A stretch of DNA of 64,000 bases from contig JANRKO010000020.1 of assembly GCA_033763455.1 (NCBI GenBank), forward strand, positions 41,311 through 105,310. The letters are read 5' to 3'. Made by a program: the position numbers and the translations under genes. Positions 15,950 through 34,325 of this stretch are shown here, piece after piece. The DNA is from Polyangiaceae bacterium (lineage in GTDB: Bacteria; Myxococcota_A; Polyangia; Polyangiales; Polyangiaceae). The stretch's first letter is position 1. Each line of letters opens with the position of its first letter. The notes beneath the pieces are model-generated. The model did not search any database. It saw only the letters and a program-made list of their open reading frames with translations, and had not been told where the DNA came from.

Positions 15950-16147
15950 GGCGCTTGGTCGCAGCTTAGATAACCGCGCCAACCCTGCGCGCATGCGCAC
16001 AGGCTCACGGGTCGGACATTCTCTGACGTGATAGAAGCGGCTAGCGGCGTCCTTGAAATCGTGATTTCCTGGCGGTTCGGCGATGGGCCGCTCCCAGCAG
16101 GATCGCGCCCGCAACCCACCCACTAAGTAACAGGATGAGGCACGAGC

Positions 16148-16612: not shown

Positions 16613-17395
16613 CGCGAGGGCTGGGCCCATTTCAGCTGGCTTTGCCCACTTGACCGGACGGACTGGCGTCGAGTTCGGCAACCGTTCAACAGCGCTGCGC
16701 TTCGAAGGGGGTCAGCGTCTGGGTAATACCGGCGTTTGCCTGGTCTGCCTGCTCCCCACTGATTTTTGCTAGCCAGCTTGCATCCTCGACGCGCACGCTG
16801 GGTATAGAGAGGGTGGCCAACGCACGTTCGGGGCATTCGCGTCTTTCTGACTTGCCCGACCGCTCCCACCTCCGTCCTGACCCTCGTTCGCCGGCCGCCG
16901 GGAACGTCTTAGGCCAGTTCCAGCAGAAGCCCACTAGCGTTGACGCCTGAGCAACACCCTCCTCATTGAGAATGATGCTTGACCGAGTCCCTCACTGGGC
17001 AAGAGCGCGCGCCCGCGCCCGACGCCGCACGCCAGGACACTGAGAACCTGCAACTGCGTCGCTTTGTCCGAAACCTGCAGTTGCGCCTAGGCGAACTGAA
17101 CCCGTCGCGCACAACGCAACGAGATGGCAAAAAAGCTACCAAAACCTAGGCCACAAAGGCTCAACAACAATCAATCAACAACCTTCGCTCCCTCCACAGG
17201 CGCAAGCTCCCGCAGCGTCATCACCAGATACCATGACACGCATCATCTGGTTCCGTGCATAGATTTCTCAAAAAAAAAAGGCCCACGCGCCTTAAATCGC
17301 TATCTTCGCCAACCGTTCCACTCAGCTCGAACAGAGGGAAATAAGGCATATCGCGATTCCCGTGACCCACGTTCACTACTTTCAGGTAAGCGCCC

Positions 17396-19735
17396 ATGAC
17401 GGAACTTGATGACGTCGTTAAAGAATTCTTGGTTGAAAGCCATGAGAACCTGAGTGCGCTGGAGCAGGATCTGGTTCGGCTGGAGCAAACCCCAGACGAC
17501 TCAAAGGAAGCCCTCGCTCGGATATTCCGCACGGTGCACACAGTCAAAGGCACCTGCGGGTTTCTAGGATTCTCCAAACTTGAGAGCGTCACCCACGTCG
17601 GCGAGAACCTGTTGAGCAAGCTGCGTGACGGCGTTCTCCACGTTACAGGGGACATAACCTCCGCACTTTTGGCCTTAGTGGACGCCATCCGGGAGATGCT
17701 AACCTCGGTCGAAACGACCGGAGAGGAGGGCCCGGGGGACTACAGTGCTCTCATCGCCGAGCTCACCCGCCTGCTTGAACCCAAGCAGGCTCCCCCAAAA
17801 CCACAACTTCGAGCCGCTGATGCATCCGTTGAGGTGGAGCGAGCGGAAGCCCCAGTGGCTCCCATCGGGGAGCTCTTGGTCCAAGCGGGCCGCGTGACCC
17901 GCGAAGAGGTCAAAGAGGTGCTTGAGCTCCAGCAGGCGGGCGACCCCCGGCACGTAGGCGAAATCTTAGTGGAGCAAGGCAGAATTGTTCCCGAAGACGT
18001 GGTGGACGCGCTCAACGTCCAGAAGAAGGCCAAGCCGCAAACGGGAGGCCTTGCCGACACAACTATTCGCGTCGAAGTGAGCCAACTGGATAAGCTCATG
18101 AACCTCGTGGGCGAGCTTGTTTTGGCTCGAAATCAGATCCTACAGTTCATCGGCCCGGACACCGACGCAGTACTGCAAACCACCACTCAGCGACTGAACC
18201 TCGTTACCACTGAGCTGCAGGAAGGCGTGATGAAGACGCGCATGCAGCCCATCGATACCGTGTGGTCCAAGTTCCCAAGAGTGATTCGGGACTTAGCGCG
18301 TTCCTGCAGGAAGCGTGTACGCGTTGAGATGGAAGGGCGAGATACCGAGCTCGATAAGACGATTATCGAGGCGATCAAAGATCCACTCACACACATCGTT
18401 CGCAATGCGGTCGACCACGGCGTGGAATCTCCCGAAGAGCGAGAAGCAGCAGGAAAGCCACCGGAAGGCTTCTTAAGGCTCCAAGCATTTCATGAAGGCG
18501 GACACGTAAACATAGAGATATCGGACGATGGTGGCGGCATCGATCCGGAGAAACTAAAGCGCAAAGCGCAGGAAAAAGGCCTGGTATCAGCCGCTGCTTT
18601 GGCACGCATGTCCGAGCGTGAGCTTCTTTCATTAATTTTCATGCCCGGCTTTTCGACGGCCAAGGAAGTCACCAACGTCTCCGGCCGCGGAGTGGGCATG
18701 GATGTGGTGAAGACCAACATCGAACGCATTGGCGGTACCGTGGATATTAGTAGCCGCATCGGTGCCGGAACAACCATCCATATCAAGATCCCCCTCACCT
18801 TAGCGATCATTCCCGCACTTGTGGTGGCTTCCGGTCACGAGCGTTTTGCGATTCCGCAGGTGAGCCTTTTGGAGCTCGTGCGCATGGATCTGGAAAAGCC
18901 CAACGGGGGCATTGAAGACGTGAGCGGTGTGCCCGTGTATCGATTGCGCGGGAACCTGCTTCCAATAGTTGACCTTGGCTTCGAGCTTTTCGGAAAGAAG
19001 TCCAACATCGGCGAAAATGGCGTAGCCACCATTGTTGTTCTGCAAGCCGATGAGCGGCAGTTTGGGCTTTTGGTCGAAGAGATCCACGACACCGAGGAAA
19101 TCGTCGTAAAACCTCTAGGCAAGCAGCTCAAGAATCTCTCCGCATTCTCAGGTGCGACCATCATGGGAGACGGCCGCGTAGCCCTAATCTTAGACGTTTT
19201 GGGGCTGGCTCAAATGGCGCGTGTCGTGGGTACAACGCGAGATCGTTCGCTCGGCGATCGTGGCAAACATGCGCAAGAGTCAGCCGAGAAGCCGGAATCG
19301 TTGCTGCTGGTACGTGTGGGTACACGCCAGACTCTGGCTATCCCGCTCAGGCTCGTGGCACGCCTCGAAGAAGTTGCGTTAGATTCGGTCGAAAGGGCTG
19401 GTGCCAGCAACGTCGTTCAGTATCGCGGGCAGATCATGCCCCTCATCCACCTGAGCGAGGTTGTTTCTGAGATTGTAGAAGCGGATCTGGTTGCGCCCGA
19501 AGTATTGTCCGTAGTGGTATTCGATCACCTGGGGCAAAGCGTGGGCCTCGTGGTTTCGGCCATCGTAGATATCGTGGATGAGGCCGTAAAGCGCCACTCA
19601 ACCGCCAAACGCCCAGGAATTTTGGGCTCCGGCGTGGTGCAAGGGCAGGTTGTTGAGTTGGTTGATCTTCCTGGGTTGATGCAGCGCGTATTGCCCCGCG
19701 CCGTTTCGGACGCCCCCGCCGCACTCGTAGCTTGA
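17396..19735 (+). CDS. cheA: CheA with an MshEN-like insert after Hpt and an extra C-terminal CheW domain
   Basis: FRTVHTVKGTCGFL, HIVRNAVDHG, SGRGVGMDVV; insert PIGELLVQAG..LELQQ..HVGEILVEQG..ALNVQ; second CheW-like domain AIPLRLVARLEE. Confidence 0.95.
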   Translation: MTELDDVVKEFLVESHENLSALEQDLVRLEQTPDDSKEALARIFRTVHTVKGTCGFLGFSKLESVTHVGENLLSKLRDGVLHVTGDITSALLALVDAIREMLTSVETTGEEGPGDYSALIAELTRLLEPKQAPPKPQLRAADASVEVERAEAPVAPIGELLVQAGRVTREEVKEVLELQQAGDPRHVGEILVEQGRIVPEDVVDALNVQKKAKPQTGGLADTTIRVEVSQLDKLMNLVGELVLARNQILQFIGPDTDAVLQTTTQRLNLVTTELQEGVMKTRMQPIDTVWSKFPRVIRDLARSCRKRVRVEMEGRDTELDKTIIEAIKDPLTHIVRNAVDHGVESPEEREAAGKPPEGFLRLQAFHEGGHVNIEISDDGGGIDPEKLKRKAQEKGLVSAAALARMSERELLSLIFMPGFSTAKEVTNVSGRGVGMDVVKTNIERIGGTVDISSRIGAGTTIHIKIPLTLAIIPALVVASGHERFAIPQVSLLELVRMDLEKPNGGIEDVSGVPVYRLRGNLLPIVDLGFELFGKKSNIGENGVATIVVLQADERQFGLLVEEIHDTEEIVVKPLGKQLKNLSAFSGATIMGDGRVALILDVLGLAQMARVVGTTRDRSLGDRGKHAQESAEKPESLLLVRVGTRQTLAIPLRLVARLEEVALDSVERAGASNVVQYRGQIMPLIHLSEVVSEIVEADLVAPEVLSVVVFDHLGQSVGLVVSAIVDIVDEAVKRHSTAKRPGILGSGVVQGQVVELVDLPGLMQRVLPRAVSDAPAALVA

Positions 19736-19747
19736 AAAGGGAACTCT

Positions 19748-20197
19748 ATGCTGACTGAGAACCAATACTGCACGTTCACATTGGGCCCATTCATGTTCGG
19801 AGTCGGTGTGCGTGAGGTGCAAGAGGTCATTCGCTACCAAGAGATGACACGTGTGCCCTTGGCCCCACGCACGGTGGGAGGCCTTATCAATCTACGCGGG
19901 CAGATAGTGGTAGCCGTAGATTTGCGCGAGCGATTGGGCTTACCCGCGCGCGATTCAACGGTGCTTCCTATGAATGTGGTCGTGTGCTCTGACGACGGTG
20001 CCGTGAGCCTTTTGGTCGACGAAATCGGCGACGTTATCGAGGTCAGCCCGTCCGAATTTGAAGCCGCACCCGACACACTTACGGGAACAGCTCGAGATCT
20101 AATAACCGGCGTCTACAAACTTGAGGGAAAGCTCCTGCTCGTTCTCGACGTCAACAAGACCGCCACCACTGAACTTGAAATCGCAAAAGTTGCCTAG
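19748..20197 (+). CDS. cheW: CheW adaptor
   Basis: [36 protein letters not shown]. Confidence 0.95.
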
Positions 20198-20216
20198 ATT
20201 TTTGAGGGAAATATTC

Positions 20217-23200
20217 ATGACTACTACATCTGCCGCCACCTCTGAAGACGTGAACCTTTATGAGCTCCTAGGAGGTGAAGATATTATCCGAGCCGCCGTG
20301 GACGCATTTTACGAACGCGTGCTCGCTGACGAAGAACTTGCACCCTACTTCGAAGACGCAAATATGAAGGGGCTAAAGAAGAAGCAAACGATCTTCTTGT
20401 CGCAGGCTTTGGGCGGCCCCCAAAAGTATCGCTGGCGCGACATGCGAACGGCTCACGCAGGAATGAACATCACAGCCGAGCATTTCGATCGAGTTGCTGA
20501 ACACCTGGTGGCAACACTCACCGGCTTGGGCGTGAACATGCCCACCGTAAACAAGATCCTAGCGGTGGTAGCGCCGCTTAAAAACGACATCGTGGACGAC
20601 CGCAGCAGCGGCAAACAACCAATCTCAGAGGAATCTCGCATGGCAAGCTTATCGCAAATCCCCCCCCATCAGAACGGCTCCGCTCGCAGCTCCGCCCCGA
20701 AGGCCCCGCTTGGGGCCCTCGCGCAGGATAGCGCAATTTTGGCAGAGCTGCTCGAAGCCCTGCACACTACAACTGCCTTTCAAGACGTGGTCACCACCGC
20801 GCTGGAGCTTGTGTGTGAACGCATGGGCTGGAGCTACGCCGCGTACCTATCCGTCGATACCGAACAAGACGTGATGCGTTTTGTAGCCGACTACGGGCAA
20901 ACGGACGCCGCCCTTTCCCGTCTAGTGCGAGGTGCACAGTGGCGGCGTGGCGAAGGGATCGCCGGCCAGGCCTGGGACGATGGTAAACAACTCGTGGCGG
21001 ATGCGGATGAGGACTTTGGAAATCCGCGCTTGGCAGCAGCCGCGGAACGCGCACGAATGGCCACCAGTCTCGCGTTGCCCCTCTCGCTAGGGAACCGTAC
21101 GGCAGGCGTATTCCTTTTCTACTCAACCACTGAGCAGAACGTGAACTCCCAGGCGCAGAAGGTGTTCCGAAGCGTGGCCACATTAGTGGGTGCTGCCGTC
21201 GAACGCGCTGACACTGGACGCATTCGATCCATGTTGGATAAGGCCCCCACCAACGTCATTTACGCGGATAAAGACTTCATCATCCGCTACGCTAATGCGG
21301 CTTCACTGAAGACCCTCCGGTCCCTGGAAACGTATCTCCCCTTCAAGGCCGACGAACTTGTTGGAAAATCAATCGACGTTTTTCACAAGCATCCAGAACA
21401 CCAACGCAAGTTACTTTCGGATCCGAAGAACCTCCCCCACCAAGCCCTCATCCAGCTTGGTCCGGAGACACTAGATCTTTTGGTGAGCGCAATTACGGAC
21501 GACTCTGGCCGCTACCTTGGGCCCATGTTGACCTGGCAGGTTGTTACCCAGAAGGTGAAAACCGAACGCGAAATGGCGCGCATCTTCAACATGATGGAAA
21601 ACGCACCCATCAATGTGATCTATGCCGACAAGAATTTCAACATTCAATACATGAACCCGGCATCGCTCCGCACGCTAAAGAGCATTGAGCAATATCTGCC
21701 TGTGCGTGCTGATGAAGTTGTCGGAAAGTCAATTGACGTTTTCCACAAGCACCCAGAGCACCAGCGCACCTTGCTCTCTGACCCAAAGAAGCTACCTCAT
21801 CAGGCCATCATCAACGTAGGTCCAGAGAAGCTCGACCTGCTAGTAAGTGCCATTTACGACTCCAAGGGGGAATACCTGGGCCCGATGGTCACCTGGCAGG
21901 TGGTAACGCAAAAGCTCAAGACCGAGCGTGAAATGGCGCGAATCCACAACATGATGGAAAACGCACCCATCAACGTCATTTACGCCGATCGCGAAGGCAC
22001 CATTCAGTACATGAATCCTGCCTCTTTGAAGACGCTCCGCTCCCTCGAGGCACACCTACCGGTGCGCGCGGACGAAATCATCGGAAAATCGATCGACATC
22101 TTCCACAAGAAGCCGGAGCACCAGCGCGGTATCGTTGCCAACCCAAAGAACCTCCCCCACGAGGCCACCATTTCCGTCGGCCCAGAGAAGCTGCGACTGC
22201 TCGTGAGTGCGATTCTCGACCAAAAGGGTGAATTCCTCGGGCCAATGCTCACTTGGGAAGTAGTTACCGAAAAACTCAAGCTTGAGGCCAAGCAGAAGGA
22301 AACCGCAGTGCTATCTGCCGGCATGTCAAAGCTGATGGAAGCCCTGGGCAATGCACTCACTCCGAGCGAGTGCCTGCGTGTCGCCCTCGACACCATGCGC
22401 GAAGGCTTCAACTGGACCTACGGAGCGCTGTGGCCTCTGGACACCGAGAGCAAAACGCTCAAGTTCATGCAGGATTCTGGCGAAATTGCGCCGGAGTTCC
22501 GGCGTTCATCTGAAACAGCGACGTTTCGTTTGGGGCAAGGCCTCGGTGGTCGCGCCTGGCAAAGCATGGACATGATAGCTGTGGATGATCTCTCCCAGCT
22601 CACCGATTGCCCCCGCGTAGGCGTGGCGGGTCGCATTGGTATCAAAACAGGAGCCGCCTTTCCCATCATTGTGGACGGTAAGCTCTGGGGCGTGATCGAT
22701 TTCATCTCGACCGAACCCATCCCGATCTCTCCCGAGCGCCAGGAAACATTGCGGAACGCAGGACGCGCTCTGTCTGCGGCGTTCGAGCGTTTGCTCGGTG
22801 TCGCCAAGCAGAAGGAAGCCGCAGTGCTGTCCGCGGGCATGTCCAAGCTCATGGAAGCCCTGGGCAACGCGCCTAGTTCCAATGATTGCCTACGCGTTGC
22901 ACTCGACACCATGCGCGAAGGTTTCAACTGGACCTACGGAGCCCTCTGGCCGCTCGACGCTGAAACCAAAACCCTCAAATTCATGCAGGACTCTGGCAAC
23001 ATTGCACCCGAATTCCGGCGTTCATCTGAAACCGCTACATTCCGCTCAGGGCAAGGCCTCGGTGGTCGCGCCTGGCAGAGCATGGACATGATAGCTGTGG
23101 ATGATCTCTCCCAGCTCACCGATTGCCCCCGCGTAGGCGTGGCGGGTCGCATTGGTATCAAAACAGGAGCCGCCTTTCCTATCATTGTGGAAGGCAAGCT

Positions 23201-24290
23201 CTGGGGCGTGATCGACTTTGTCTCCCTTGAACCCATCGCCATCTCCCCGGAGCGCCAGGAGACGCTGCGAAACGGCGGGCGCGCCCTTTCGGCAGCGTTC
23301 GAACGACTGCTTGGAGTGGAGCGCGAGCAGCGGCATGCCGCCGAGCTAAAAGACAAGGTCGATCAAATGTTGGCAGTGGTGAACGCCGCAGCTGCAGGGG
23401 ACCTCACACGCGAGGTTACGGTGAACGGTAAGGATGCGATCGGTCAGATGGGTGAAGGATTGAGCCGCTTCCTCACCGATCTTCGTCAAAGTATTGGTGA
23501 CATCGCATTGAACGGAAAATCGCTCAACGGCTCCTCCGAGGAACTGCTCGGCATGAGCCAGACCATGGCTTCAAACTCTGAGGAAACCTCGGCACAAGCC
23601 AACGTCGTTTCAGCAGCGGCCGAAGAGGTGAGCAAGAACGTGCAAACGGTGGCAGCGGGCGTGGAGGAAATGAGCGCCAGCATTAAGGAGATTGCCAAAA
23701 ATGCAAGCGACGCCGCCAGAGTGGCCATCGAGGGTGTCAAGGCCGCCGAGACCACCAACGCAACGGTTGCCAAGCTCGGCGAAAGCAGCGCGGAGGTCGG
23801 TAAAGTTATCAAAGTCATTACCTCCATCGCCCAGCAGACCAACCTACTCGCGCTCAACGCGACGATCGAAGCAGCGCGCGCCGGTGAAGCGGGCAAGGGC
23901 TTCGCGGTGGTGGCCAATGAAGTGAAGGAGCTCGCCAAAGAAACGGCTAAGGCGACGGAAGACATCAGTCAGAAGATTGAAGCCATTCAGGGTGATACGC
24001 ACATGGCCGTCGAAGCTATCGCAAGAATCAGCGAGATTATCCGCCAAATTAACGATATTCAGGCCACAATAGCAGCCGCTGTAGAAGAGCAAACCGCCAC
24101 CACCAACGAAATCTCCCGCAACGTGAGTGAAGCTGCGCGCGGCAGCTCCGAGATCGCGGACAACATCACCAGTGTGGCGCAGGCCGCACAGGAAACCACG
24201 ACCGTGGCTACCAAGACGCAAGAGGCTGCCAATGCCTTGGGCAGAATGGCGGCCGACCTCACCAAGTTAGTGGCTCGCTTCAAAAACTAA
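20217..24290 (+). CDS. Giant soluble chemoreceptor: group I truncated hemoglobin-GAF-3x Aer2-type PAS-2x GAF-HAMP-MA
   Basis: LYELLGG..FY..LGGP..MRTAH globin; three ID(V/I)FHK(H/K)PEHQR..TW PAS repeats at 360-nt spacing; two GAFs at 516-nt spacing; [28 protein letters not shown] before ATG 20217. Confidence 0.93.
21231..22270 (+). repeat. Three intragenic PAS-coding repeats (360-nt period)
   Basis: Units begin at about 21231, 21591 and 21951. Confidence 0.85.
22287..23318 (+). repeat. Two intragenic GAF-coding repeats (516-nt period)
   Basis: Copies start GCCAAGCAGAAGGAA at 22287 and 22803; 101-nt perfect tract 22563-22663 = 23079-23179. Confidence 0.9.
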
Positions 24291-24319
24291 CCCCCGGCTC
24301 CCTCAGGTTCGGAGGCCCC

Positions 24320-24709
24320 ATGAAAGCCATTGTAGTAGATGATTCCGGAACGATGCGACGCATCTTGAAACGGATGCTAATTGAACTCGGCTTCGAGGTG
24401 AGCGAAGCCGAGGACGGGGTGGCGGCACTCGAATGGTTCAAGCTCAACGGCGCCATTGATTTGGCACTTTTGGATTGGAACATGCCGGAAATGAGCGGTT
24501 ACGATCTATTGCGCATGGTGCGCTCGAAGCATGAATTCGACAGCATGCGCATCATGATGGTGACCACCGAAAGTGAGATGGAAAAGATGTCCCAAGCACT
24601 CGACGCGGGGGCCGACGAATATGTAATGAAGCCGTTTACGAAGGACGTCATTACCGATAAGCTAAGCCTCTTGGGATTTGAGGGCAGCGTTCATGGAGCT
24701 GCCCCTTGA
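24320..24709 (+). CDS. cheY: CheY response regulator
   Basis: AIVVDDSGTMRR, LLDWNMPEMSG, MVTTE, MKPFT; GGAGG RBS. Confidence 0.93.
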   Translation: MKAIVVDDSGTMRRILKRMLIELGFEVSEAEDGVAALEWFKLNGAIDLALLDWNMPEMSGYDLLRMVRSKHEFDSMRIMMVTTESEMEKMSQALDAGADEYVMKPFTKDVITDKLSLLGFEGSVHGAAP

Positions 24710-25812
24710 AGAAAATCCGCGTCCTTATCGTTGACGACGCCGTTGTCATCCGAAAGATCCTTTCGGATGTGCTATCGGCGGAGCCCGATATGGACGTGGT
24801 GGGCACGGCGGCCAATGGCGCCCTCGGGCTCAAGAAGATTGAACAGCTCTCGCCCGACGTAGTGCTGTTGGACGTGGAGATGCCAGAGATGAACGGCATC
24901 GAAACCATCAGGGCGATTCGACCGCTCTACCCGAGGTTGCCCGTCATCATGTTCAGCACGCTCACGAACGCGGGAGCGGCCACCACCATTGAGGCCCTGC
25001 TACTTGGTGCTACGGATTACGCCACCAAGCCTGCCAACGTTGGCAGCACCACCAACGTGGTGAAGGAGGTTCAAACCACCCTCCTGCCAAAGATCCGCAA
25101 TGCCTGTGGGCAATTGCTCCCAGCGCAAGCTACCGCCGTTCGCCAGAGTGCGCCGCCTCGCCTCGCCAAACCCATCCCCGCTTCCAACAAGCGTCCAGAA
25201 ATACTGGTCATCGGCACTTCCACCGGTGGGCCCAATGCGCTCGCTGAAGTCCTGAAAGATATTCCCGCGTCATTTCCGGTGCCGGTGTTGATCGTTCAAC
25301 ACATGCCCCCGCTCTTCACACACTTTCTGGCCGAGCGACTGAACAAGAACTGCCCGTTGCGCATCCGCGAGGCAGTGGATGATACCCCGCTCCTACCGGG
25401 GGAGTGCTGGATAGCCCGGGGTGATTACCACATGGACTTGAAGCGAACGGCGAGCGACGTGCGGCTCGCCTTAAACCAAGCCCCCCCCGAGAATTCCTGC
25501 CGTCCCGCGGTAGACGTAACTTTTCGCGCAGTGGCCCGCCTTTACGGCGGAGCAAGCTTAGCCGTTGTTCTCACCGGAATGGGGCAAGATGGCCTGCGCG
25601 GAGGGAGAGCGATCCGAAGCGCAGGCGGGCGAGTTCTGGCTCAAGATCAAGCTTCTTCTGTGGTGTGGGGAATGCCGGGAGCAGTGATCGAAGCGGGGAT
25701 CGCAGAGGCCGGGCTGCCGCTTTCCCAAGTTGCCGCGGCCATCTTGGAACGGTTTGGTTTGAGCAAGCGCACGGCTATTCAAGCTAAGGAGCGGGCCGTT
25801 GGAAACAGTTGA
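24706..25812 (+). CDS. cheB: CheB methylesterase (REC + esterase)
   Basis: IGTSTGGPNAL, VQHMPPLFT, RPAVD, LTGMGQDG, VWGMPG. Confidence 0.96.
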   Translation: MKKIRVLIVDDAVVIRKILSDVLSAEPDMDVVGTAANGALGLKKIEQLSPDVVLLDVEMPEMNGIETIRAIRPLYPRLPVIMFSTLTNAGAATTIEALLLGATDYATKPANVGSTTNVVKEVQTTLLPKIRNACGQLLPAQATAVRQSAPPRLAKPIPASNKRPEILVIGTSTGGPNALAEVLKDIPASFPVPVLIVQHMPPLFTHFLAERLNKNCPLRIREAVDDTPLLPGECWIARGDYHMDLKRTASDVRLALNQAPPENSCRPAVDVTFRAVARLYGGASLAVVLTGMGQDGLRGGRAIRSAGGRVLAQDQASSVVWGMPGAVIEAGIAEAGLPLSQVAAAILERFGLSKRTAIQAKERAVGNS

Positions 25813-26608
25813 TTTCCAGTTCCTTCAGAGGTTCATGCACAGCCACGCGGCGATCGTGATCGACGAGGGCAAGCAGTACCTGGTGGAGAACCGACTTCAG
25901 CCAGTGGCGAAAGCGGCAGGCCTAGCCGATCTGCATGGCCTCGTTGCGCGCCTCAAAGGTGAACCATTCGGGCACCTCCACCGCGACGTGCTCGACGCGA
26001 TGACCACCAACGAAACCTCGTTTTTTCGCGACACCAAGCTCTACGAAGCGCTGGAAAGGGAGATCCTACCTGAGCTTCTTACGTACACTGCGGGCCGCAA
26101 GCTAACCATCTGGTGCGCTGCGTGCTCCACGGGCCAAGAACCCTATACATTGAGCATTATCTTCAAGGAAAAGCTCAGAGTTGGCCCCGAGCGCGTCGAA
26201 ATCATCGCTACCGATATCTGTGAACGAGCGCTCGCGGCCGCCACGCTTGGGGAATACAGCCAGATGGACGTGAATCGCGGCTTGCCAGCACCTCTTTTGC
26301 TCCGCAATTTTCAGCAGGCAGGGCGCACCTTCCGCATTAACGATGAGGTCAAGAAATACGTAAAATTCCGCAAATTGAACCTTGCTCAAGCCTGGGAAGG
26401 CCTCGGTTCACTCGATCTCGTCCTCATCCGCAACGTGCTAATTTACTTCAACATCGACACCAAGCGGCAAATCTTGAACAGGGTAAAGAGCCTCATGAAG
26501 CCCCACGCCTATCTTATTCTAGGTGCCGCGGAGACCACGCTCAATATCGATGATTCCTACGAACGAATCGTCAAAAAAGACGCAACTATCTACCGTCCTG
26601 TACGTTAA
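25799..26608 (+). CDS. cheR: CheR methyltransferase
   Basis: TTNETSFFRD, WCAACSTGQEPY, RNVLIYF. Confidence 0.95.
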   Translation: METVDFQFLQRFMHSHAAIVIDEGKQYLVENRLQPVAKAAGLADLHGLVARLKGEPFGHLHRDVLDAMTTNETSFFRDTKLYEALEREILPELLTYTAGRKLTIWCAACSTGQEPYTLSIIFKEKLRVGPERVEIIATDICERALAAATLGEYSQMDVNRGLPAPLLLRNFQQAGRTFRINDEVKKYVKFRKLNLAQAWEGLGSLDLVLIRNVLIYFNIDTKRQILNRVKSLMKPHAYLILGAAETTLNIDDSYERIVKKDATIYRPVR

Positions 26609-26624
26609 CGCGAAGAGCAACTCA

Positions 26625-27092
26625 ATGACTATTGCTGAACAACTATGGATCGACGCCAGTTTAGGCGCCTTGCGCGACAGCATCTCGATGTTTGAAGCGG
26701 ACACCCTCGACGTGATTTCTGTGACAACCACGCTCCCTGTTCGCACGCGCGGCGCCTTTATCTCCATAGCCGGCAAATCGCAGTCGGTGGAGCTCGGCGT
26801 AGTGTGCGAAAGCGATGTGCAGCAGGTGCTGTCCCAACGTTTCCTAGGCGAATCCACCACCCTCTCTGAAGAAGAAGTCGCCGACGCCATGAGGGAGTTC
26901 GCCAATATCCTGGCTGGTGGGCTCAAGGGTGCCATGGTCCAGCATGACCCAACTCTCGCCCTCGGCCTGCCTCTATTTGTTGACGGCATCCATCCGAGCC
27001 CCGCTACGCGGACGCACAGTGCACAGGTAATGCTGGCGGACCAAGAGCTGTGTTTGGTCGTAATTGTGGGCTCTTTGGGGCTCGCAGCGTGA
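26625..27092 (+). CDS. cheX: CheX-like phosphatase
   Basis: DAMREFANILAGGLK; near-collinear paralog of 16148-16612. Confidence 0.8.
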   Translation: MTIAEQLWIDASLGALRDSISMFEADTLDVISVTTTLPVRTRGAFISIAGKSQSVELGVVCESDVQQVLSQRFLGESTTLSEEEVADAMREFANILAGGLKGAMVQHDPTLALGLPLFVDGIHPSPATRTHSAQVMLADQELCLVVIVGSLGLAA

Positions 27093-27102
27093 AGCCGTAA
27101 GA

Positions 27103-27735
27103 ATGGCAACGCCAAGCTCCCCGCCACGTGAAAGACGCCGCCTCCCGTTGGCGATGCGCAAAGGGCAGCTTGAGCTAACGGATCTATCCGGTTCCGAGTT
27201 TATGTCACTGGTTTCGCAACAGGCTCGCTCGGAAGAAAGTGGGTCTATCAGCTCTCAGTATGAGCGTGAGCTCTGCCGCGGTGACACACACGTAGGCGCG
27301 CTTGGAGTCCGTGCGTGCGACGCCGTCGTTGGCGCTATTAGCTACGGCAAGCTTGCTCTACCGCGCCACCCAGGCAAAGTGTCCCTGCGCATTGACGTGG
27401 TGGTCACTCGGCGCCATTGCCGCAAGATGGGCATTGGGGCCCTCCTCATTGCTGCCCTGATCAACAAATTTGCCAAGGAGCTCGGCCCGAACCTCCACCA
27501 TGTTTCCGTGATGGCCGTGCACCCGGCCATGATCCAGGTCTTCTCGAAGTTGAACTTCGAGCGAGCGGCTCCGAACGTACCGCTTTATTCGAGGCTACTG
27601 AATGAGCGCGAACTATTGGACATGCAGCGCCAAACAGACGGTATCGTTAACCTGAAGCTCCGTGATCTGAAAGCTCTGTGTGTGCCCTGCCGGCGCTTTG
27701 AGCGGCATGCTCCTTGGTGTGCGGCCGAGGGCTAA
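27103..27735 (+). CDS. GNAT-family acetyltransferase with C-terminal Cys cluster
   Basis: IDVVVTRRHCRKMGIGALLI (motif A RxxGxG), FSKLNF; tail CVPC..WC; 10 nt after the cheX stop. Confidence 0.7.
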   Translation: MATPSSPPRERRRLPLAMRKGQLELTDLSGSEFMSLVSQQARSEESGSISSQYERELCRGDTHVGALGVRACDAVVGAISYGKLALPRHPGKVSLRIDVVVTRRHCRKMGIGALLIAALINKFAKELGPNLHHVSVMAVHPAMIQVFSKLNFERAAPNVPLYSRLLNERELLDMQRQTDGIVNLKLRDLKALCVPCRRFERHAPWCAAEG

Positions 27736-27738
27736 CGC

Positions 27739-28680
27739 ATGGCAACGGGCTACCTATGGGACAGTGCTTCGCTCGGCTACGTGACTGGAGATCAGCTACC
27801 TGAACATCCGCGCCGCGCTCGGGCGCTGACTCCCGCACAGTTTGCCGGCATGAGCGGCGTCGAACAAATTCACACGCAGCCAGATTTGGGACTACCCTGG
27901 GTCGGGCGCGTGCACTCTGCGCAGTTTATGCGCGAGGTCCGCCTTGCTTCGCAGAATTCGCGGCTCTGGTTTGACGGCGGGGACACGGTGGTCCGCCCGG
28001 ACGCATTCGAAGTGGCGTTGATGGCGGCCTCAGGGGCTCTAACGCTCACGGATGCCGTGCTCCGCGGCAAAGTCCACAATGGTTTCGCGGCCATTCGGCC
28101 TCCAGGCCATCACGCTTCTTCTGAGCAAGCTCGTGGGTTTTGCATTTTCAACAATGTGGCCATCTGCGCCCGCTACGCCCAGCAGGTTTTCGGGATTGAG
28201 CGCGTTCTGATTGTGGATTGGGACGTGCACCCTGGGGACGGCACAGCCGCCATATTCTTCGAAGATCCAAGTGTTTTCGTGTTCAGCATGCATCAGCGAG
28301 GCATCCTCGGTCCGGAGGTGGGCGGCGAGCAACTAGAGGGGCGAGGCCCTGGCCGCGGGTGCACCCGCAATGTACCAGTGGAGGCTGGAACCTCAGCGGC
28401 GAGCTATCTGCACACGTTTACCCACGCACTCCGCCAGGTTGCCCGCAGCTTCAAACCGGGTCTGGTTCTTGTAAGTGCGGGCTTTGACGCGCATCGGGCC
28501 GATCCGCTCGGTGGGCTTTTGTTGGAGGAAAGTTCCTTTGCCGAGCTCACCGGGCTCGTGAAGGACATGGCTGCCATCTATGCCTCCGGAAGGCTTGTAT
28601 CTTTGCTTGAAGGTGGTTATCAACCTGGTGTATTGCGAGATTGTGTGGGGGCCCACTTGGCAGCCCTAGCAGGAAGCTGA
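27739..28680 (+). CDS. Zn-dependent histone-deacetylase-family (AcuC/HDAC-like) amidohydrolase
   Basis: HPR, RPPGHHA, GFCIFNNVA, DWDVHPGDGT, SAGFDAH, LEGGY. Confidence 0.93.
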   Translation: MATGYLWDSASLGYVTGDQLPEHPRRARALTPAQFAGMSGVEQIHTQPDLGLPWVGRVHSAQFMREVRLASQNSRLWFDGGDTVVRPDAFEVALMAASGALTLTDAVLRGKVHNGFAAIRPPGHHASSEQARGFCIFNNVAICARYAQQVFGIERVLIVDWDVHPGDGTAAIFFEDPSVFVFSMHQRGILGPEVGGEQLEGRGPGRGCTRNVPVEAGTSAASYLHTFTHALRQVARSFKPGLVLVSAGFDAHRADPLGGLLLEESSFAELTGLVKDMAAIYASGRLVSLLEGGYQPGVLRDCVGAHLAALAGS

Positions 28681-28682
28681 AG

Positions 28683-28699
28683 TTGGCATCATGCATGCA
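28683..28699 (+). promoter_or_regulatory. Possible sigma54 -24/-12 element upstream of the sensor kinase
   Basis: TTGGCATCATGCATGCA (GG-N10-GC). Confidence 0.4.
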
Positions 28700-28747
28700 G
28701 GGGAGAGATTCTGGGATGATAGCTATGGCTTCAAAAGTGGGAAGTAG

Positions 28748-29902
28748 ATGATCATGGGAATTGCGTTGAACCCAGGTGAAAGTTCGGCAGCGAAGCCAGC
28801 GGGTTCGCGGGCGTCTCAACAGGCACCCCGCGCCAGCTCAGGCTCACTTCTTAGCTGTATGTCGGACAGCACCTTGCGCCAGAAAGTGGCCGGATATTTT
28901 GACGAGGTGTTTTTTCTTTTGACGCCCGATTTGAGTCGAGAGCTGCACATTAGCCCCACGTACGAGCGGGTTTTCGGCTACCCAGTGAGCGCCGGAGTGC
29001 GGGACACCTGGTTCGAAAGAGTGCACCCTGAAGATCGGCCCGTTCTGGCAGCCTTCATGAACGCTTTCCCCGCGCTTGAGCCCGGAGGTGAAGTTGAACT
29101 CCCGCGCTACCGTGTACGGCGAGCTGATGGCCAATTCCGTCACGCCAAGTGTCGGATGTTCCCGATTATGGATGACACCGGCGAAATGGTGGCGGTGGGT
29201 GGCATTTTGGTGGACGAAACCGAGGCGCGCTTGGCCGAGGCCGCACTTCAGGAATCCAAGCGTGAGCTACAGCGCATGGCCGCCAACATCGAACGCGTCC
29301 AAGAAGAAGAACGCCGGGTTACGGCTCAATTCGTGCACGATCAATTGGGCCAATCCTTAGCCCTCGCCAAGCTCCGCCTGGATGCTTTTCTAGCCGCTCA
29401 TAACGTGCCGCGCACGGATCCCGAGGCCGCAAAGGTCCTCCAAGCCATCCAAGCCGCAATCGATGATTCTCGGCGGGTGGCCTACGATACGAGCCCACCC
29501 GTGCTGTATGATCTCGGCCTCATCCCGGCCCTGGAAGCCCAAGGGGAGCTTCTGTGTTCGGAACACCGCCTGGAATTTTCGATTGAGACAGTTGGCTCAT
29601 TCGAAAGCAAATCTCAGAATAATGTATTGGTGTTTCGAATTCTTCGGGAGCTGATGCTCAACGTAATCAAACACGCAGCGGCGAAGCATCTGCGCCTCAG
29701 CGTGCAAGTTCAACCGCCCACGCTCTTCATTCAACTTATCGACGATGGGCGGGGTTTCGATATGGCTACGCACTCCCCCAATTACGGCCTGGCGAGTGTT
29801 CGCCAGCGCCTATCTTATCTCGGCGGTGAGCTAACGCTCACTAGCACTCCGGGCCAGGGCACTACCGCCGCCATTTCCATACCGCTTGGAGCATTCCTAT
29901 GA
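28748..29902 (+). CDS. PAS sensor histidine kinase, HisKA_3 (NarX/UhpB) type
   Basis: RVHPEDR PAS; EEERR..VHDQLGQSL; NVIKHA; DDGRGFD; start uncertain. Confidence 0.9.
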   Translation: MIMGIALNPGESSAAKPAGSRASQQAPRASSGSLLSCMSDSTLRQKVAGYFDEVFFLLTPDLSRELHISPTYERVFGYPVSAGVRDTWFERVHPEDRPVLAAFMNAFPALEPGGEVELPRYRVRRADGQFRHAKCRMFPIMDDTGEMVAVGGILVDETEARLAEAALQESKRELQRMAANIERVQEEERRVTAQFVHDQLGQSLALAKLRLDAFLAAHNVPRTDPEAAKVLQAIQAAIDDSRRVAYDTSPPVLYDLGLIPALEAQGELLCSEHRLEFSIETVGSFESKSQNNVLVFRILRELMLNVIKHAAAKHLRLSVQVQPPTLFIQLIDDGRGFDMATHSPNYGLASVRQRLSYLGGELTLTSTPGQGTTAAISIPLGAFL

Positions 29903-30537
29903 GAGTTCTGCTTGTTGACGATCATAAAATCCTACGTGATGGGCTAAAGAGCCTGCTCTTGGCCCAAGGGCTTAACGTTGTGGGCGAGGCGGGCGACGGA
30001 GAAACAGCACTCGCGTTGGTGGAGCAACTCCAACCGCAAGTTGTCGTGATGGATATCGGCCTAAAAGGCATGACCGGTATCGACGCGACGAAGCAAATCC
30101 GCAAGCGCTTCCCCAATGTTGCCGTTTTGGCTCTATCCACCCACTCAGAAAAGCACTTCGTGACGGGCATGCTGGCTGCCGGTGCACTGGGTTACGTCAC
30201 GAAAGATTCGGCTTTTGAAGACCTCGCCAATGCCGTTCGTTCGGTGGCAGAGGGGCGCGTCTACACCAGCCAAACCATCACTGACGTGGTGATGAGAGAA
30301 TACACCGGCAAGCAACAAAGACCCCAAGAAACTCCTACCCTTTCCGCACGTGAGGAGCAGGTATTAGCGGCCATCGCTGACGGCAAGAGTTCGCGAGAAA
30401 TCGGGGATGCCCTGGGGCTCAGTGTGAACACCATCGACACCCATCGCCGGCGCATCTCAGAAAAGCTAGGTGTAAAAACCGTGGCTGCGCTTACCAAGTT
30501 TGCCGTGCGGCAAGGGCTCTCAAACATCAACCACTAA
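29899..30537 (+). CDS. NarL/LuxR-family response regulator
   Basis: VLLVDDH REC; LSAREEQVL..GKSSREIG..TIDTHR HTH; ATGA coupling to the kinase. Confidence 0.95.
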   Translation: MRVLLVDDHKILRDGLKSLLLAQGLNVVGEAGDGETALALVEQLQPQVVVMDIGLKGMTGIDATKQIRKRFPNVAVLALSTHSEKHFVTGMLAAGALGYVTKDSAFEDLANAVRSVAEGRVYTSQTITDVVMREYTGKQQRPQETPTLSAREEQVLAAIADGKSSREIGDALGLSVNTIDTHRRRISEKLGVKTVAALTKFAVRQGLSNINH

Positions 30538-30953
30538 GCTTCGTTTGCAAGCAGCTCGCACAGTGTTTTAAGCCGCTCGACAGCTGCGGCGAGTTTCTGG
30601 GAACCCTGAGGGGTAACAGACAAACCTAGAACGGACTCAATGTCTTGCGCCAACGCGGAAACCTGGTGATGTCCGAAAGTACCGGCTGTTCCCGCAATGC
30701 GGTGAGCCAAGCGCTCAGCCGCTCTCAAAAGCGAATCATCCTTACACTCCGATAACTGAGCCAATAGCTCCCTGAGCTCACCGAGCTGGCGAGTGAGCGT
30801 AGCCACATAGGCGCAGCTTAGAGCTCGGAGCTCGGCCCCTATCGCCCCAGCATCAGGCTCACCGTTGCCCGCGGGTAAGCCACCTGCCGTGCCCATGTCT
30901 AGAGGTGGTCTCGGCGGAGGCGACGACGCGTGCCCGTTCGCCCGGCCGCTCAT
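30534..30953 (-). CDS. Stand-alone Hpt phosphotransfer protein
   Basis: LAHRIAGTAGTFG Hpt motif. Confidence 0.85.
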   Translation of the reverse strand: MSGRANGHASSPPPRPPLDMGTAGGLPAGNGEPDAGAIGAELRALSCAYVATLTRQLGELRELLAQLSECKDDSLLRAAERLAHRIAGTAGTFGHHQVSALAQDIESVLGLSVTPQGSQKLAAAVERLKTLCELLANEA

Positions 30954-33430
30954 CCTTTGGCCTCATTATTCACGCTTCCTATTGGAAGCTCGAACTCGAA
31001 GGTAGTGCCGCCTTCGGTGCAACGGAAGTCAAGCCTTCCGCCCAACTGATCCACGATGGCCTTGGCAATGCTGAGGCCAAGCCCCGTTCCACTCACGTGC
31101 CGTTCGTCAGAAGCATCCGCCTGAGCAAATCGTTCAAATACTCGGCCTTGGAATTCAGAAGGGATCCCTGGGCCGTGATCCGTGACAGCCGTGACTACAA
31201 AGCCGGACTTCTTTGTGACTCGGACCTCGATGGTAGAGGCGGCCGGGGAAAATTTCTGAGCATTTGAGAGCAGATTCGTCAGCACCTGCAGCACACGCTC
31301 GGGGTCAGTGATGCACCAACAAGGTTCAGGAGCATCGAGTACGAAAGCGACGCTTGTGGTGGAATGTATTGCCCGCATATCCGCTATTGCGCGCGCTGCG
31401 ACATCGCACACGTCAACTTGGCTGAGCTCAAAATTCAGAGTGCCTCGCTCCACCTTTCCAATATCCAAGATGTCGTCCACAAGGCGCGTCAGGCGCCTGG
31501 CACTCATCAACGCCATTCGTACCATTTCACGCGGCCCCTCCGCGAGCTCCCCAGCCACCCCTCCGTCAAGCAACCCCAGGGCCCCGCGGATAGCGGTAAG
31601 GGGGGTGCGCAGCTCGTGGCTCACGCTCGAGACAAACTCAGACTTCAGCCGTTCCACTCTCTTGCGCTCAGAGATGTCTCGCACGACCGCTACCAGGCTA
31701 TGCTGGCTGCCAACTTCGACGTTGTTGAACGACACCTCGGCAGGGAATCTGGAGCCATCAGAGCGTACTCCCACAAGCTCCACCGGCGCCCCGATCAATC
31801 CATCATCCGGGCGCGCATGTTTGAGGAACTCCATTCCTAAGTCGCTCCTCGGGTCGATCAATAGTGACCCCACCTGGCTCTTAAGCAGCTCCGCAAGCTC
31901 TCTGCCGAAGAGCCGCGTTGTTGCCGGATTCGCCCGCTGAATGTTGCCCTCTTTATCGAACGCAATAATGGCGTCCCCTGCGGCATCCACCACGGCGCGC
32001 AGACGTTCTTCGCTTTGTTGCAGTGCTTTTTCAGCCGAAGCGCGCAGCTCTTGGGTTCGAAAGGCCTGAATGATCGTGCCGCAAGTGGCCAAAAATGGCT
32101 CCAAGAACGCCACTAACTCCTCGGAGTAGCCCCCCTCGCGGTTCGCAACACCCAGCAAGCCGACGAGAGCATCCCCCATAAAGAGAGGCAGCCCAAGGAA
32201 GGCTTTGAGCGGTGGATGCCCAGGAGGCAGCCCCCCACGTCGATGATCCGAGCTCGGCTCATTGGCTATTACCGCGCTTCGGGTGGTAATCACCCGCCCA
32301 AAAAGGTTGTCAAGATTTCGGAACGCGATCCCGGTTGTTGCGGCACCCCGGTACACCTCGCGCGAAGCCTCGTCCCATGCCACGTCAGAGAGCGCGTGAC
32401 ATTTCAAATAGGGCTTGCCCGCCTCACCTTCCACCACTTCTCCAATAAAGCCATAACTGCTCCCGGTCGCTCTTAGTAGACCTTCCAAGAGCAACTGGAA
32501 CCAGGTCCCTGGGTCTCGCTGCTCAATTAAGCAGCTCTGCGCTTCGCTGATGCACGCGAGCAATGCGTGTGACTGTTGAGCGCCCTCAGCCGCCCTCACG
32601 CGTTCGGTAATGTCGTGCCCCACCAAGTACGTCACATTCTCGGCGGGATCGTGGCTTGCACTCCACGAAACCCAAAGGAAGCCTTCCCCCTTCTTCAACA
32701 TGCGAACGTCGAACCCGGTCGACTCGCCACTCTTCACGCGTTCCAGTGCCGTTTTCACACCCGCAACGTCGTCCGCGTGAACTAGCCCACCCCAGCCGAG
32801 CAGACTGATCTCTCCGACAGAAAATCGGAGGTGCTGCCCCCAGACTGGGTTGCTCTCCAAAATCTCCCCAGTTGGTGCGACGATCGCCGCGAAAGTTTGG
32901 GCAGCGGCGAAGAGCCTCCGGTACGTTTCAGCGGCGATCCGTTGGCGACGCAACTCCAACGTCCGCATCACTTGTCGAGCAAAGAGCTGCAGTGTTTCGA
33001 GTTGCTCCGCGCGCAGTGTGCGCGGGCGCTGATCGATCACGCAGAAGGTGCCAAGCACGTATCCCTCGGGGGTGAGAAGCGGCGCACCCGCGTAGAACCT
33101 GATCTTGGGCCCACCCGTAACGAGTGGGTTGTCTAAGAAGCGAACATCCTCCCGCGTATCTTCCACGATGAGCGGCACCCCATCGGCCACCACGTGCCCG
33201 CAAAACGAAACCTCGCGCGGAGTTTCGCTAGCACTAATTCCGTAGCGTGACTTGAACCACTGGCGCCCCTCATCCACAAAAGAGATGAGCGCAACCGGCA
33301 CCTCGAAGGTGCGAGCTACCAATTCGACGAATTCATCGAACACGAGCTCAGCTTCTGAATCCAACACCCCGTAACGCCGCAGCGCATTCAAGCGCTTAAC
33401 TTCGTTCTCTGGCAGAGCTGGCGGCTTCAC
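30950..33430 (-). CDS. Soluble GAF-PAS-GAF-PAS sensor histidine kinase
   Basis: SFCGH..RFYAGAPL GAF; GLPPGHPPLKAFLGLP GAF; SHELRTPL; NLLSNA; GTGLGLSI. Confidence 0.93.
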   Translation of the reverse strand: MKPPALPENEVKRLNALRRYGVLDSEAELVFDEFVELVARTFEVPVALISFVDEGRQWFKSRYGISASETPREVSFCGHVVADGVPLIVEDTREDVRFLDNPLVTGGPKIRFYAGAPLLTPEGYVLGTFCVIDQRPRTLRAEQLETLQLFARQVMRTLELRRQRIAAETYRRLFAAAQTFAAIVAPTGEILESNPVWGQHLRFSVGEISLLGWGGLVHADDVAGVKTALERVKSGESTGFDVRMLKKGEGFLWVSWSASHDPAENVTYLVGHDITERVRAAEGAQQSHALLACISEAQSCLIEQRDPGTWFQLLLEGLLRATGSSYGFIGEVVEGEAGKPYLKCHALSDVAWDEASREVYRGAATTGIAFRNLDNLFGRVITTRSAVIANEPSSDHRRGGLPPGHPPLKAFLGLPLFMGDALVGLLGVANREGGYSEELVAFLEPFLATCGTIIQAFRTQELRASAEKALQQSEERLRAVVDAAGDAIIAFDKEGNIQRANPATTRLFGRELAELLKSQVGSLLIDPRSDLGMEFLKHARPDDGLIGAPVELVGVRSDGSRFPAEVSFNNVEVGSQHSLVAVVRDISERKRVERLKSEFVSSVSHELRTPLTAIRGALGLLDGGVAGELAEGPREMVRMALMSARRLTRLVDDILDIGKVERGTLNFELSQVDVCDVAARAIADMRAIHSTTSVAFVLDAPEPCWCITDPERVLQVLTNLLSNAQKFSPAASTIEVRVTKKSGFVVTAVTDHGPGIPSEFQGRVFERFAQADASDERHVSGTGLGLSIAKAIVDQLGGRLDFRCTEGGTTFEFELPIGSVNNEAKG

Positions 33431-33432
33431 GG

Positions 33433-33813
33433 CTAACCTTCCTCGCCAAGTAATCTACGCAGCTCACTCGGAAGCTTCATGGGATCGAACGGCTTTGGAA
33501 TAACGCCTGAAGCCCCCATTTCCACGTAGGCCTGCACCTCGTGCTTCTGGACTTTGGCAGTTAAAAAAACCACGCGAATGTTAGCCAACGCTGCTCGTTT
33601 TCGGATCTCAAGCAGCGTGGTTGGGCCGTCCATTCCCGGCATCATCACGTCCAGGAGGATCACGTCAGGAAGCTCACGTTCGGCGACTTCGAGTGCCTCT
33701 TTTCCCGAGCCGGCAAGGAAGGTCTTCCAACCGCCCACTCTTTCCAAACTCAATCGACTGATCGTGCGAAGATCCGGTTCATCGTCCACCACAAGCACTT
33801 TAGAAATCGACAT
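33433..33813 (-). CDS. Single-domain response regulator
   Basis: VLVVDDE, LLDVMMPGMDG, FLTAK, KPFDP. Confidence 0.92.
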   Translation of the reverse strand: MSISKVLVVDDEPDLRTISRLSLERVGGWKTFLAGSGKEALEVAERELPDVILLDVMMPGMDGPTTLLEIRKRAALANIRVVFLTAKVQKHEVQAYVEMGASGVIPKPFDPMKLPSELRRLLGEEG

Positions 33814-34325
33814 AGGAACCCACGGGGACCGAATGAACACGACAGGATAAAAGCAATACGCCTACCTTCGCAAACAGGTTAGCCCACTTGCGCTAAGCAT
33901 ATCCAATTACAACATTCACCGGATCTAACGAATCAACACGCGGGCTGCAGGCACTTCTCATACAGAAAGAGCCTTTTTACACAGCAACGACGCTGACCAA
34001 CTTGCAACAGCCGCGCGCATGCGTCCGACCTCAAAAGCAGCGTGTTACTCATGCTAGCAAGCGCGTCCACGTTGTGCGTTCGCGGCATCGTGTCGCCGTG
34101 TTCCTCATGGCAATACTCAAGCCCCCAAACCATCAGGCTCGAGATGCGCAAACGCGAATCGACGAGTTGTCCCCGATGGCGAGGCTGCATCCGAACGGCA
34201 GCAGACGTACGCGGGGCCTTCGGTGACCCCTCCCTATCCAACGTACGTTTGGAAGAGGCGAATCGCACACCTCAAACCCCAAACGCACACCCCTCTGTGA
34301 ACTATCTGAAACTCTTGAGCTTTTT

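Follow-up and report, generated by a model that had tools for sequence, protein, structure and literature searches.

The stretch of DNA analysed here, called the window, comprises 64,000 nucleotides of a Polyangiaceae bacterium (assembly GCA_033763455.1, contig JANRKO010000020.1, positions 41,311 to 105,310; genome G000), and the elements of interest are two adjacent genes, for a GNAT acetyltransferase and a Zn-dependent deacetylase, at the end of a chemotaxis (che) gene cluster. The genes of the cluster all lie on the plus strand and were assigned with Pfam. The cluster opens with cheA (17396-19735; Hpt, dimerisation, HATPase_c and CheW-like domains) and continues with cheW (19748-20197; PF01584, E-value 3.9e-31), the gene of a cytoplasmic methyl-accepting chemotaxis protein (MCP, 20217-24290; truncated-globin PF01152, GAF, PAS and HAMP domains), cheY (24320-24709; a single receiver domain, PF00072, E-value 2.2e-28), cheB (24706-25812; receiver domain and methylesterase), the methyltransferase gene cheR (25799-26608) and cheX, of the CheY-P phosphatase family (26625-27092; PF13690, 38.1 bits, E-value 1.6e-9). 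These are followed by the GNAT gene (27103-27735; 210 residues; PF00583, 21.2 bits, E-value 3.6e-4) and the deacetylase gene (27739-28680; 313 residues; Hist_deacetyl PF00850, 263.3 bits, E-value 3.6e-78). The stop codon of cheX (TGA, 27090-27092) is separated from the GNAT start codon (ATG, 27103) by 10 nucleotides, and that of the GNAT (TAA, 27733-27735) from the deacetylase start codon (ATG, 27739) by 3 nucleotides. The gene order from cheA to the deacetylase, the common strand and both gaps had been given in a preliminary description of this DNA and were borne out. A consensus scan of positions 16600-31000 found no promoter- or terminator-like site in the cheX/GNAT and GNAT/deacetylase junctions; over the scanned region such sites were at background, with 4 promoter-like sites versus 5.0 +/- 2.5 and 14 terminator-like sites versus 15.0 +/- 4.1. 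Because of the tight spacing on one strand and the lack of such sites in both junctions, the che genes, the GNAT and the deacetylase are likely to be co-transcribed.

The receptor encoded within the cluster is a soluble MCP of roughly 1350 residues (20217-24290, plus strand). Its longest open reading frame (ORF) starts at a TTG at 20121, inside cheW; the in-frame ATG at 20217 is preceded by a GAGGGA motif and is the likelier start. The N-terminus matched truncated haemoglobin (PF01152) with an E-value of 1.4e-23 and protoglobin with an E-value of only 0.003, and the remainder of the protein contained three GAF stretches, PAS and HAMP domains. From its domains it looks like an unusual globin-coupled chemoreceptor, of an oxygen, NO or redox type.

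By its sequence, the 313-residue protein is unambiguously a classical Zn-dependent deacetylase of PF00850, the match spanning profile positions 2-298 of 298. The motifs RPPGHH, DWDVH, GFDAH and EGGY, which the preliminary description had listed, were all located in the translation, at residues 120-125, 160-164, 248-252 and 291-294. The double histidine is H124-H125, the metal ligands are D162, H164 and D250, the GFC motif is G133-F134-C135 and the tyrosine is Y294; all catalytic motifs are present. A double histidine, Asp-His-Asp ligands, a GFC motif and an (E/S/G)GGY tyrosine are given as the marks of classical deacetylases in the Fig. 1 legend of a survey of the bacterial enzymes (Graf et al., 2024, PMC11532494). 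Among solved structures the best matches were to HDAC6, with 6.8e-105 across two domains, and to HdaH from bacteria, with 6.5e-55, and the match to an acetylpolyamine amidohydrolase (APAH; 9gkz) was far weaker (1.9e-25), placing the sequence closer to class II and HdaH than to class I/AcuC or APAH. It shares with HdaH and HDAC6 (class IIb, cluster 1 in Graf et al., 2024) the double histidine, the Asp-His-Asp ligands, the GFC and EGGY motifs and a PLG gatekeeper, and differs from them in the loops of its clade, described below, and in being short, without extra domains. RPPGHH and EGGY fit an acetyl-specific enzyme, and deacetylase activity is predicted.

The gatekeeper that follows the GFDA ligand reads DPLGG, a hydrophobic PLG as in HDAC6 CD2. 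Related deacetylases of the clade carry L, I or V at the gatekeeper position, one of them (locus L016) reading D-L-L-G-G. Polyamine deacetylases are reported to have Glu (PEG) in HDAC10 and PIS in bacterial enzymes at this point (PMC11532494, in the text of its section 16). Neither PEG nor PIS was found in the window deacetylase; assignment to an APAH/HDAC10-type polyamine enzyme was rejected on this ground, and the protein looks from its sequence like a lysine deacetylase and not like the polyamine type.

This result bears on an alternative in which the substrate is not a protein but a small amine, for instance a polyamine, a signalling metabolite or a derivative of an amino acid. The GNAT would form an N-acetyl compound and the deacetylase would undo this, and the level of a ligand or cofactor sensed by the GAF/PAS receptor would be set in this way. 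The receptor does have GAF and PAS domains, which bind ligands, the GNAT has SpeG and a diamine acetyltransferase among its fold neighbours, and PF00850 includes polyamine deacetylases, bacterial enzymes being able to act on lysine and on polyamines (PMC11532494, in part). The gatekeeper, however, is a leucine and not Glu or PIS, and the APAH match of 1.9e-25 compares with 6.5e-55 or better for HDAC6/HdaH; the five linked loci described below share no gene for making or transporting amines next to the pair, and a co-encoded writer and eraser of one metabolite would form a futile cycle unless the cycle were regulatory. The small-ligand alternative is weakened by these points and is considered unlikely.

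The 210-residue protein passed the curated cut-off of PF00583 marginally (21.2 versus 20.7 bits) and matched no NCBIfam model. An AlphaFold2 model, built on 38 relatives, had a predicted local distance difference test score (pLDDT) of 94.4 and a predicted TM-score (pTM) of 0.88. Among the Foldseek matches listed for this model in the PDB almost all were GNATs (probability 1.00, TMq up to 0.55), the top match being 8gxf_A (E-value 4.5e-7, TMq 0.54), and an Atlas structure search gave a TM of 0.64 to a RimI-like cluster. The modelled protein has a clear GNAT alpha/beta fold, and solved structures are all distant from it, the best profile match being 1z4e (E-value 2.1e-5). Motif A of GNATs, R/Q-x-x-G-x-G/A, binds the pyrophosphate of acetyl-CoA; it is represented here by R107-K-M-G110-I-G112, and acetyl-CoA-dependent acetyltransferase activity is predicted from sequence and model. 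A toxin function, suggested by AtaT and KacT among the fold matches, was rejected: no antitoxin-like gene was present and the deacetylase partner is conserved. A prediction of a complex between the GNAT and the deacetylase, run without controls, scored 0.00 and counts neither way.

When all 1.84 billion representatives were searched with HMMER, 60 clusters related to the GNAT were recovered at E-values of 1e-3 or lower, 39 at 1e-10 or lower and 5 at 1e-30 or lower. Nearly all of them are ∼200 residues long and align end to end, PF00583 was matched at an E-value of 0.01 or lower in 21 of 38 members (best 4.3e-7), and among 20 representatives a name was annotated for one, "hypothetical protein". 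By these counts the GNAT is a member of a family that is rare and has no name. Less sensitive searches returned little: a word-index search gave a single homologue, 63% identical, a single-sequence search in 40 relatives gave two marginal core matches (E-values 5.7e-4 and 7.8e-4, one with two stops), and a pattern scan of the genome contigs found none. Genome G621 was rejected as a carrier of a family member, having a partial core match (positions 58-157) only, with deacetylase and che genes absent from the 10 kb on each side.

In an alignment of 38 sequences of the family, D98, R107, A138 and W205 are invariant, and Q52, C72, S80, V100, G110, S135, H140, P141 and P160 are at least 90% conserved, as are, in the C-terminal part, C193, C196 and C206. 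A SQYE motif lies at residues 51-54. The RKMGIG motif A (R107-G112) and the C-terminal CxxC..C (C193xxC196...C206) of the preliminary description were found in the translation, and the cysteine arrangement, there called unusual, turned out to be a hallmark of the family, to which C72, in the core sheet, adds a fourth cysteine. In the AlphaFold2 model, residues 168-198 form a long C-terminal helix with the CxxC at its end. A metal site, structural or redox-sensitive, is probably formed by C72, the CxxC and C206 together and would pin the C-terminal helix to the catalytic core.

Genomic context covered five GNAT-family members of the 60 clusters: that of G000, that of a metagenome relative seen on four contigs (loci L016-L019), and those of genomes G093 (L102), G440 (L106) and G1218 (L122). 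The family motifs are also present in G093 and G440, and the cysteine motif is intact in G1218. In all five the deacetylase lies directly downstream of the GNAT and a cheA-cheW cluster lies beside the pair, cheA orthologues adjoining it in L016, L102, L106 and L122. The pair occurs in three different gene arrangements. In G000 and L016-L019 it follows cheX on the same strand; the gene order of the metagenome relative is identical from cheA to the response regulator beyond the deacetylase, and its proteins are 63% (GNAT), 81% (CheA) and 77% (deacetylase) identical to those of G000. In G093, of another order (family f43), the GNAT is 37% and the deacetylase 49% identical to the G000 protein, and the pair lies on the opposite strand, divergent from PilZ and cheY genes, after which come an MCP gene in the reverse direction, an ORF without assignment, and then cheA, cheW, a globin-MCP gene, cheY, cheB and cheR in the forward direction. 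In G440 (same order as G093, family f66, 8-kb contig) and G1218 (order of G000, family f18, 72% GC) the pair is divergent from a cheA-cheW unit, which continues in G1218 with a globin-MCP gene and cheB. The globin N-terminus also matched in the receptors of G093, G1218 and the congener G002 (L118); the receptor is globin-coupled in four of the five linked loci, and the contig of G440 ends before the receptor gene. At L106 (G440, contig C133), genes for a cytidylyltransferase (PF02348) and a NeuB-family protein (PF03102) lie on the minus strand at 4659-7509, convergent on the pair, and were not seen beside it in the other loci. Retention of the linkage through three arrangements argues for selection and not for inheritance of one block.

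A tree of 87 deacetylase sequences was built. The four deacetylases linked to the GNAT family formed one clade in it (Shimodaira-Hasegawa-like approximate likelihood ratio test support 97). The deacetylase of G435 (L020, a metagenome-assembled genome (MAG) of Phycisphaerae) was sister to this clade (support 95), the nearest neighbours were from Planctomycetota MAGs, and homologues from the family of G000 itself were placed elsewhere. Among the sequences compared, the clade is found only with the four-cysteine (Cys4) GNAT. Its members read DWDVHP(G/A)DGT and HQxGI(L/F)xxxVG where relatives read DWDVHHGNGTQ and HQYPFYPGTG. The second stretch forms what we take, from HDAC structures, to be a loop lining the substrate channel; since this loop is altered, a changed substrate specificity of the clade is plausible. 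The full catalytic motif set is kept in four of the five linked deacetylases, the exception being G440.

For comparison, the best 80 loci of deacetylase homologues in species genomes (37-50% identical) were inspected. Matches to CheA, CheW, MCP, CheR or CheX were found at none of the 80, a receiver-domain match was the only one at 3, and a GNAT relative was detected at one, L020. This last count was made with the hidden Markov model of the family, tblastn being too insensitive and missing the diverged GNAT of L020. In total 79 of the 80 loci had neither the GNAT nor che genes. Within G000 there were 17 matches to PF00583, and the window GNAT was the only one on a stretch with che (CheW-domain) genes.

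These comparisons also bear on the possibility that the pair has no functional tie to chemotaxis and is a general protein-acetylation or detoxification module hitch-hiking with a mobile che island. The distribution is indeed patchy over four families, with the pair absent from congeners, and the Che proteins of G000 resemble those of other orders at least as much as those of its congeners, CheA being 52% identical to that of the congener G002 versus 53-56% to those of G093, G440 and G1218, which fits transfer; the patchy GNAT and these identities suggest horizontal movement of cluster and module, or a congener cluster that is a paralogue. Hitch-hiking would, however, leave unexplained the adjacency kept through three rearrangements, the dedicated deacetylase clade occurring only with the Cys4 GNAT, and the 79 of 80 other deacetylase loci without che genes and the GNAT. 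We regard it as very unlikely.

Elsewhere the pair has motility genes of the output side as neighbours: in G093 these are PilZ and cheY, and in G435 there is a FliN-like gene. The GNAT of G435 is distant, lacks SQYE and all four cysteines, and is again followed by a deacetylase; the sister pair (L020, contig C129, 2275-4255) lies beside a convergent gene for a FliN-like protein of 118 residues among housekeeping genes. A target outside the Che core (the FliM/FliN switch, a PilZ-type brake or flagellin), with che proximity arising from the clustering of motility genes, would account for the FliN-like gene converging on the distant pair and for the PilZ and cheY genes divergent from the pair in G093. 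A flagellin gene also lies 11 kb upstream of the pair in the window, and nonulosonic-acid synthesis genes, such as the NeuB and cytidylyltransferase genes after the pair in G440, are often used for flagellin glycosylation. Across the five loci, however, conservation beside the pair extends to cheA-cheW, present in all five, and not to any flagellin, FliM or FliN gene, and the pair of G435 is part of a sister group without the cysteine motif. No flagellin was found by tblastn with the window flagellin in the other four linked loci, as far as their contigs reach. A target of this kind is judged quite unlikely.

The reading favoured here, and held to be somewhat more probable than its denial, is that the pair is an accessory writer/eraser module which reversibly acetylates a protein of the Che pathway made up of cheA, cheW, the globin/GAF/PAS receptor, cheY, cheB and cheR. 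With acetyl-CoA as donor, the GNAT would acetylate a protein of the pathway at one or several lysines, candidates for this protein being CheY or the CheA/CheW/receptor core; the class-II-type Zn-dependent deacetylase would remove the acetyl mark; and the reversible layer would report acetyl-CoA or the metabolic state beside phosphorylation and CheR/CheB methylation. Regulation is preferred to catabolism because writer and eraser are kept together and the eraser has a clade of its own, the Che pathway is preferred as client because the cheA-cheW adjacency survives rearrangement, and a protein is preferred as substrate because of the gatekeeper of lysine-deacetylase type and the precedent of acetyl-CheY in E. 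coli. Within the favoured reading, CheY as target takes roughly a quarter to a third of the weight, and a similar share falls to the CheA/CheW/receptor core. The neighbours on the output side (cheX here, PilZ and cheY in G093, the FliN-like gene in G435) lead towards CheY and the motor side, CheY being the leading single candidate; cheA-cheW, as the only partner seen in all five loci, leads towards the array. The neighbourhood search for a GNAT and deacetylase beside che genes in other genomes, proposed in the preliminary description, returned the linkage in every member with context. The dedicated module tied to a che operon that was put forward there is strongly supported by this linkage, the separate clade and the lysine-type gatekeeper; its part concerning the substrate found no support.

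Several points count against this interpretation. The five linked cases are a small and possibly biased sample of a family of 60 clusters, and all of them belong to a single phylum, being four species-level genomes, spread over four families, and one metagenome organism, so that they are kin and not independent. The pair is sporadic: in the phylum sample 2 of 401 genomes carry it, and narrower samples gave 2 of 351 for the order of G000, 2 of 193 for the order of G093 and 1 of 32 for the family of G1218; it was found in none of 301 genomes from the phylum of a "delta proteobacterium" MAG and none of 181 from the phylum of a Spirochaetota MAG, blanks that carry no weight. The congeners G002 (contig C242) and G003 (L119, contig C96) have cheA-cheW-globin-MCP-cheY-cheB-cheR clusters, 45-73% identical, and no match to cheX, the GNAT or the deacetylase was found on these contigs, which reach 932 bases (G002) and 15 kb (G003) beyond cheR; since they keep the cluster without the pair, the module is dispensable for the pathway. 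G1218 has no separate cheY between the MCP gene and cheB, and the 12-kb contig of G435 contains no che cluster. The deacetylase of G440 (C133, 3740-4669) reads RPPGAQ for RPPGHH, a loss of the catalytic His pair, and RGCC where relatives read (G/F)FC (G1218 reading RFFC). The L020 deacetylase has DWDND at the metal-ligand motif, an Asp replacing the His ligand. The G440 MAG is 81% complete with 6% contamination, and the altered G440 and L020 copies may be either inactive or reader-like proteins or MAG errors. Between linked and unlinked clusters, lysines invariant in the former were replaced by arginine at CheY K2 and K108, CheA K321, K386, K394 and K439 and CheR K101, and by glutamine at one position, CheW K124; with 3-5 linked and 1-2 unlinked sequences compared, these differences are too few and too conservative to carry meaning and prove nothing. 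Some bacterial PF00850 relatives deacetylate both lysine and polyamines (PMC11532494, from its section 16), and according to the same survey HdaH-type enzymes have no established physiological substrates. What is observed directly is the order of the genes, the folds, the catalytic motifs and the linkage kept through rearrangements, from which co-transcription, the enzyme activities, the protein nature of the substrate, the target and the metal site are deduced.

The remaining genes of the region lie around the cluster. Downstream of the deacetylase are a PAS-HisKA_3 sensor kinase gene (28748-29902, plus strand, by Pfam) and the gene of its partner, a NarL/LuxR-type response regulator (29899-30537, plus strand). 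Both follow the pair in G000 and L016-L019 and are not beside it in G093, G440 and G1218, so the kinase is probably not part of the core module; a homologue of the regulator, 60% identical, lies divergently upstream of cheA in the congener G002. In the metagenome relative the regulator gene is followed by one more CheX/CheC-like gene (L016, 13455-13970). Convergent to the kinase and regulator genes, the minus strand at 30534-33840 encodes an Hpt protein, a GAF-PAS-GAF histidine kinase of 826 residues and a single-domain receiver, which add another signalling layer in the same neighbourhood. Upstream of the cluster, an ORF of 91 residues (17124-17399, plus strand) lies just 5' of cheA with a 4-nucleotide overlap; it is of low complexity, has no Pfam match and was conserved in none of the related loci. 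An ORF of 254 residues (15917-16681, minus strand) is antisense to a cheX paralogue and without a family match. Both are probably not genes, and 16613-17395 is therefore likely to be the che promoter region. The window contains three CheX-family genes, at 8884-9423 (minus strand), 16148-16612 and 26625-27092 (plus strand), of which the two on the plus strand are 55% identical. A second che cluster lies on the minus strand at 444-10244 and includes cheD, cheR, two MCP genes, cheW, cheA, a cheX-like gene, a receiver-protein gene and another cheW at 9837-10244 (51147-51554 of contig C20). CheW-domain genes of the genome were found on three contigs (C20, C21 and C68), from which at least four che clusters are deduced.

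Three known systems were compared with the arrangement described here. CheR and CheB are a writer/eraser pair of the che cluster that acts covalently and reversibly on a pathway component, and cheR and cheB lie in the same window cluster as the GNAT/deacetylase pair. The two pairs differ in chemistry (a methyl ester on glutamate versus an acetyl group on an amine) and in fold, and CheR/CheB is near-universal whereas the GNAT/deacetylase pair is accessory and rare. AcuA/AcuC of the Bacillus acu operon controls acetyl-CoA synthetase (PMC11255334, PMC13121692 and PMC11532494, each in excerpt) and likewise joins a GNAT, as writer, with a classical deacetylase of the Zn-dependent kind, as eraser, the two being encoded together beside the presumed target. 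AcuC belongs to sub-cluster 2c with class I enzymes, whereas the window deacetylase is class-II/HdaH-like, and the window GNAT has the Cys4 motif, lacks an NCBIfam match and neighbours a che cluster. Pfam scans of the window ORFs found no acs or other gene with an AMP-forming synthetase domain and no acuB-type gene, in agreement with the statement of the preliminary description that no acs is present. Assignment to an Acu system was rejected on the missing acs and acuB and on the class of the deacetylase. In E. coli, lysine acetylation activates CheY, and the acetylated form stabilises clockwise rotation; the acetyl group is added by the acetyltransferase Acs or by acetyl-CoA and is removed by the deacetylase CobB (as excerpts of PMC7957414 and PMC2883070 describe). 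Reversible lysine acetylation of a chemotaxis protein that changes motor output is thus a feature of E. coli to which the proposed module would be alike (the same excerpts). The E. coli enzymes are general metabolic ones, encoded apart from che genes, with an NAD-dependent sirtuin as eraser; the pair described here lies by che genes and has a Zn-dependent eraser, with CheY only a candidate target.

Full-text literature searches, with subscription journals outside their reach, found no description of a che-encoded acetyltransferase/deacetylase module, and the accessible text of the survey of bacterial classical deacylases (Graf et al., 2024, PMC11532494) has 0 mentions of chemotaxis or CheY. 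New here are the Cys4 GNAT family and the separate deacetylase clade, neither with a solved or named relative. Writer/eraser acetylation pairs as such are already known; in this case a chemosensory pathway appears to have taken one up as an accessory module. In a bolder and more tentative form, to which we give somewhat less than even credence, the pair would give some chemosensory pathways a third dedicated covalent layer, next to phosphorylation and methylation, in which a core Che protein is acetylated by a Cys4 GNAT, possibly sensitive to zinc or redox state, and deacetylated by a class-II enzyme built for the purpose, and in which acetyl-CoA and redox state are coupled to a globin-sensor pathway of aerotaxis type, a copy such as that of G440 perhaps serving as an acetyl-lysine reader.

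Acetylation of CheY has been known in E. coli for decades and its role is still called obscure (PMC7957414), in part because Acs and CobB are general metabolic enzymes. If the favoured reading is true, a pair attached to a che cluster would give the first genetic indication of acetylation as a designed layer of chemotaxis control, in which reversible acetylation tunes swimming behaviour, and the pair would offer two small, expressible proteins with which the target could be found directly.

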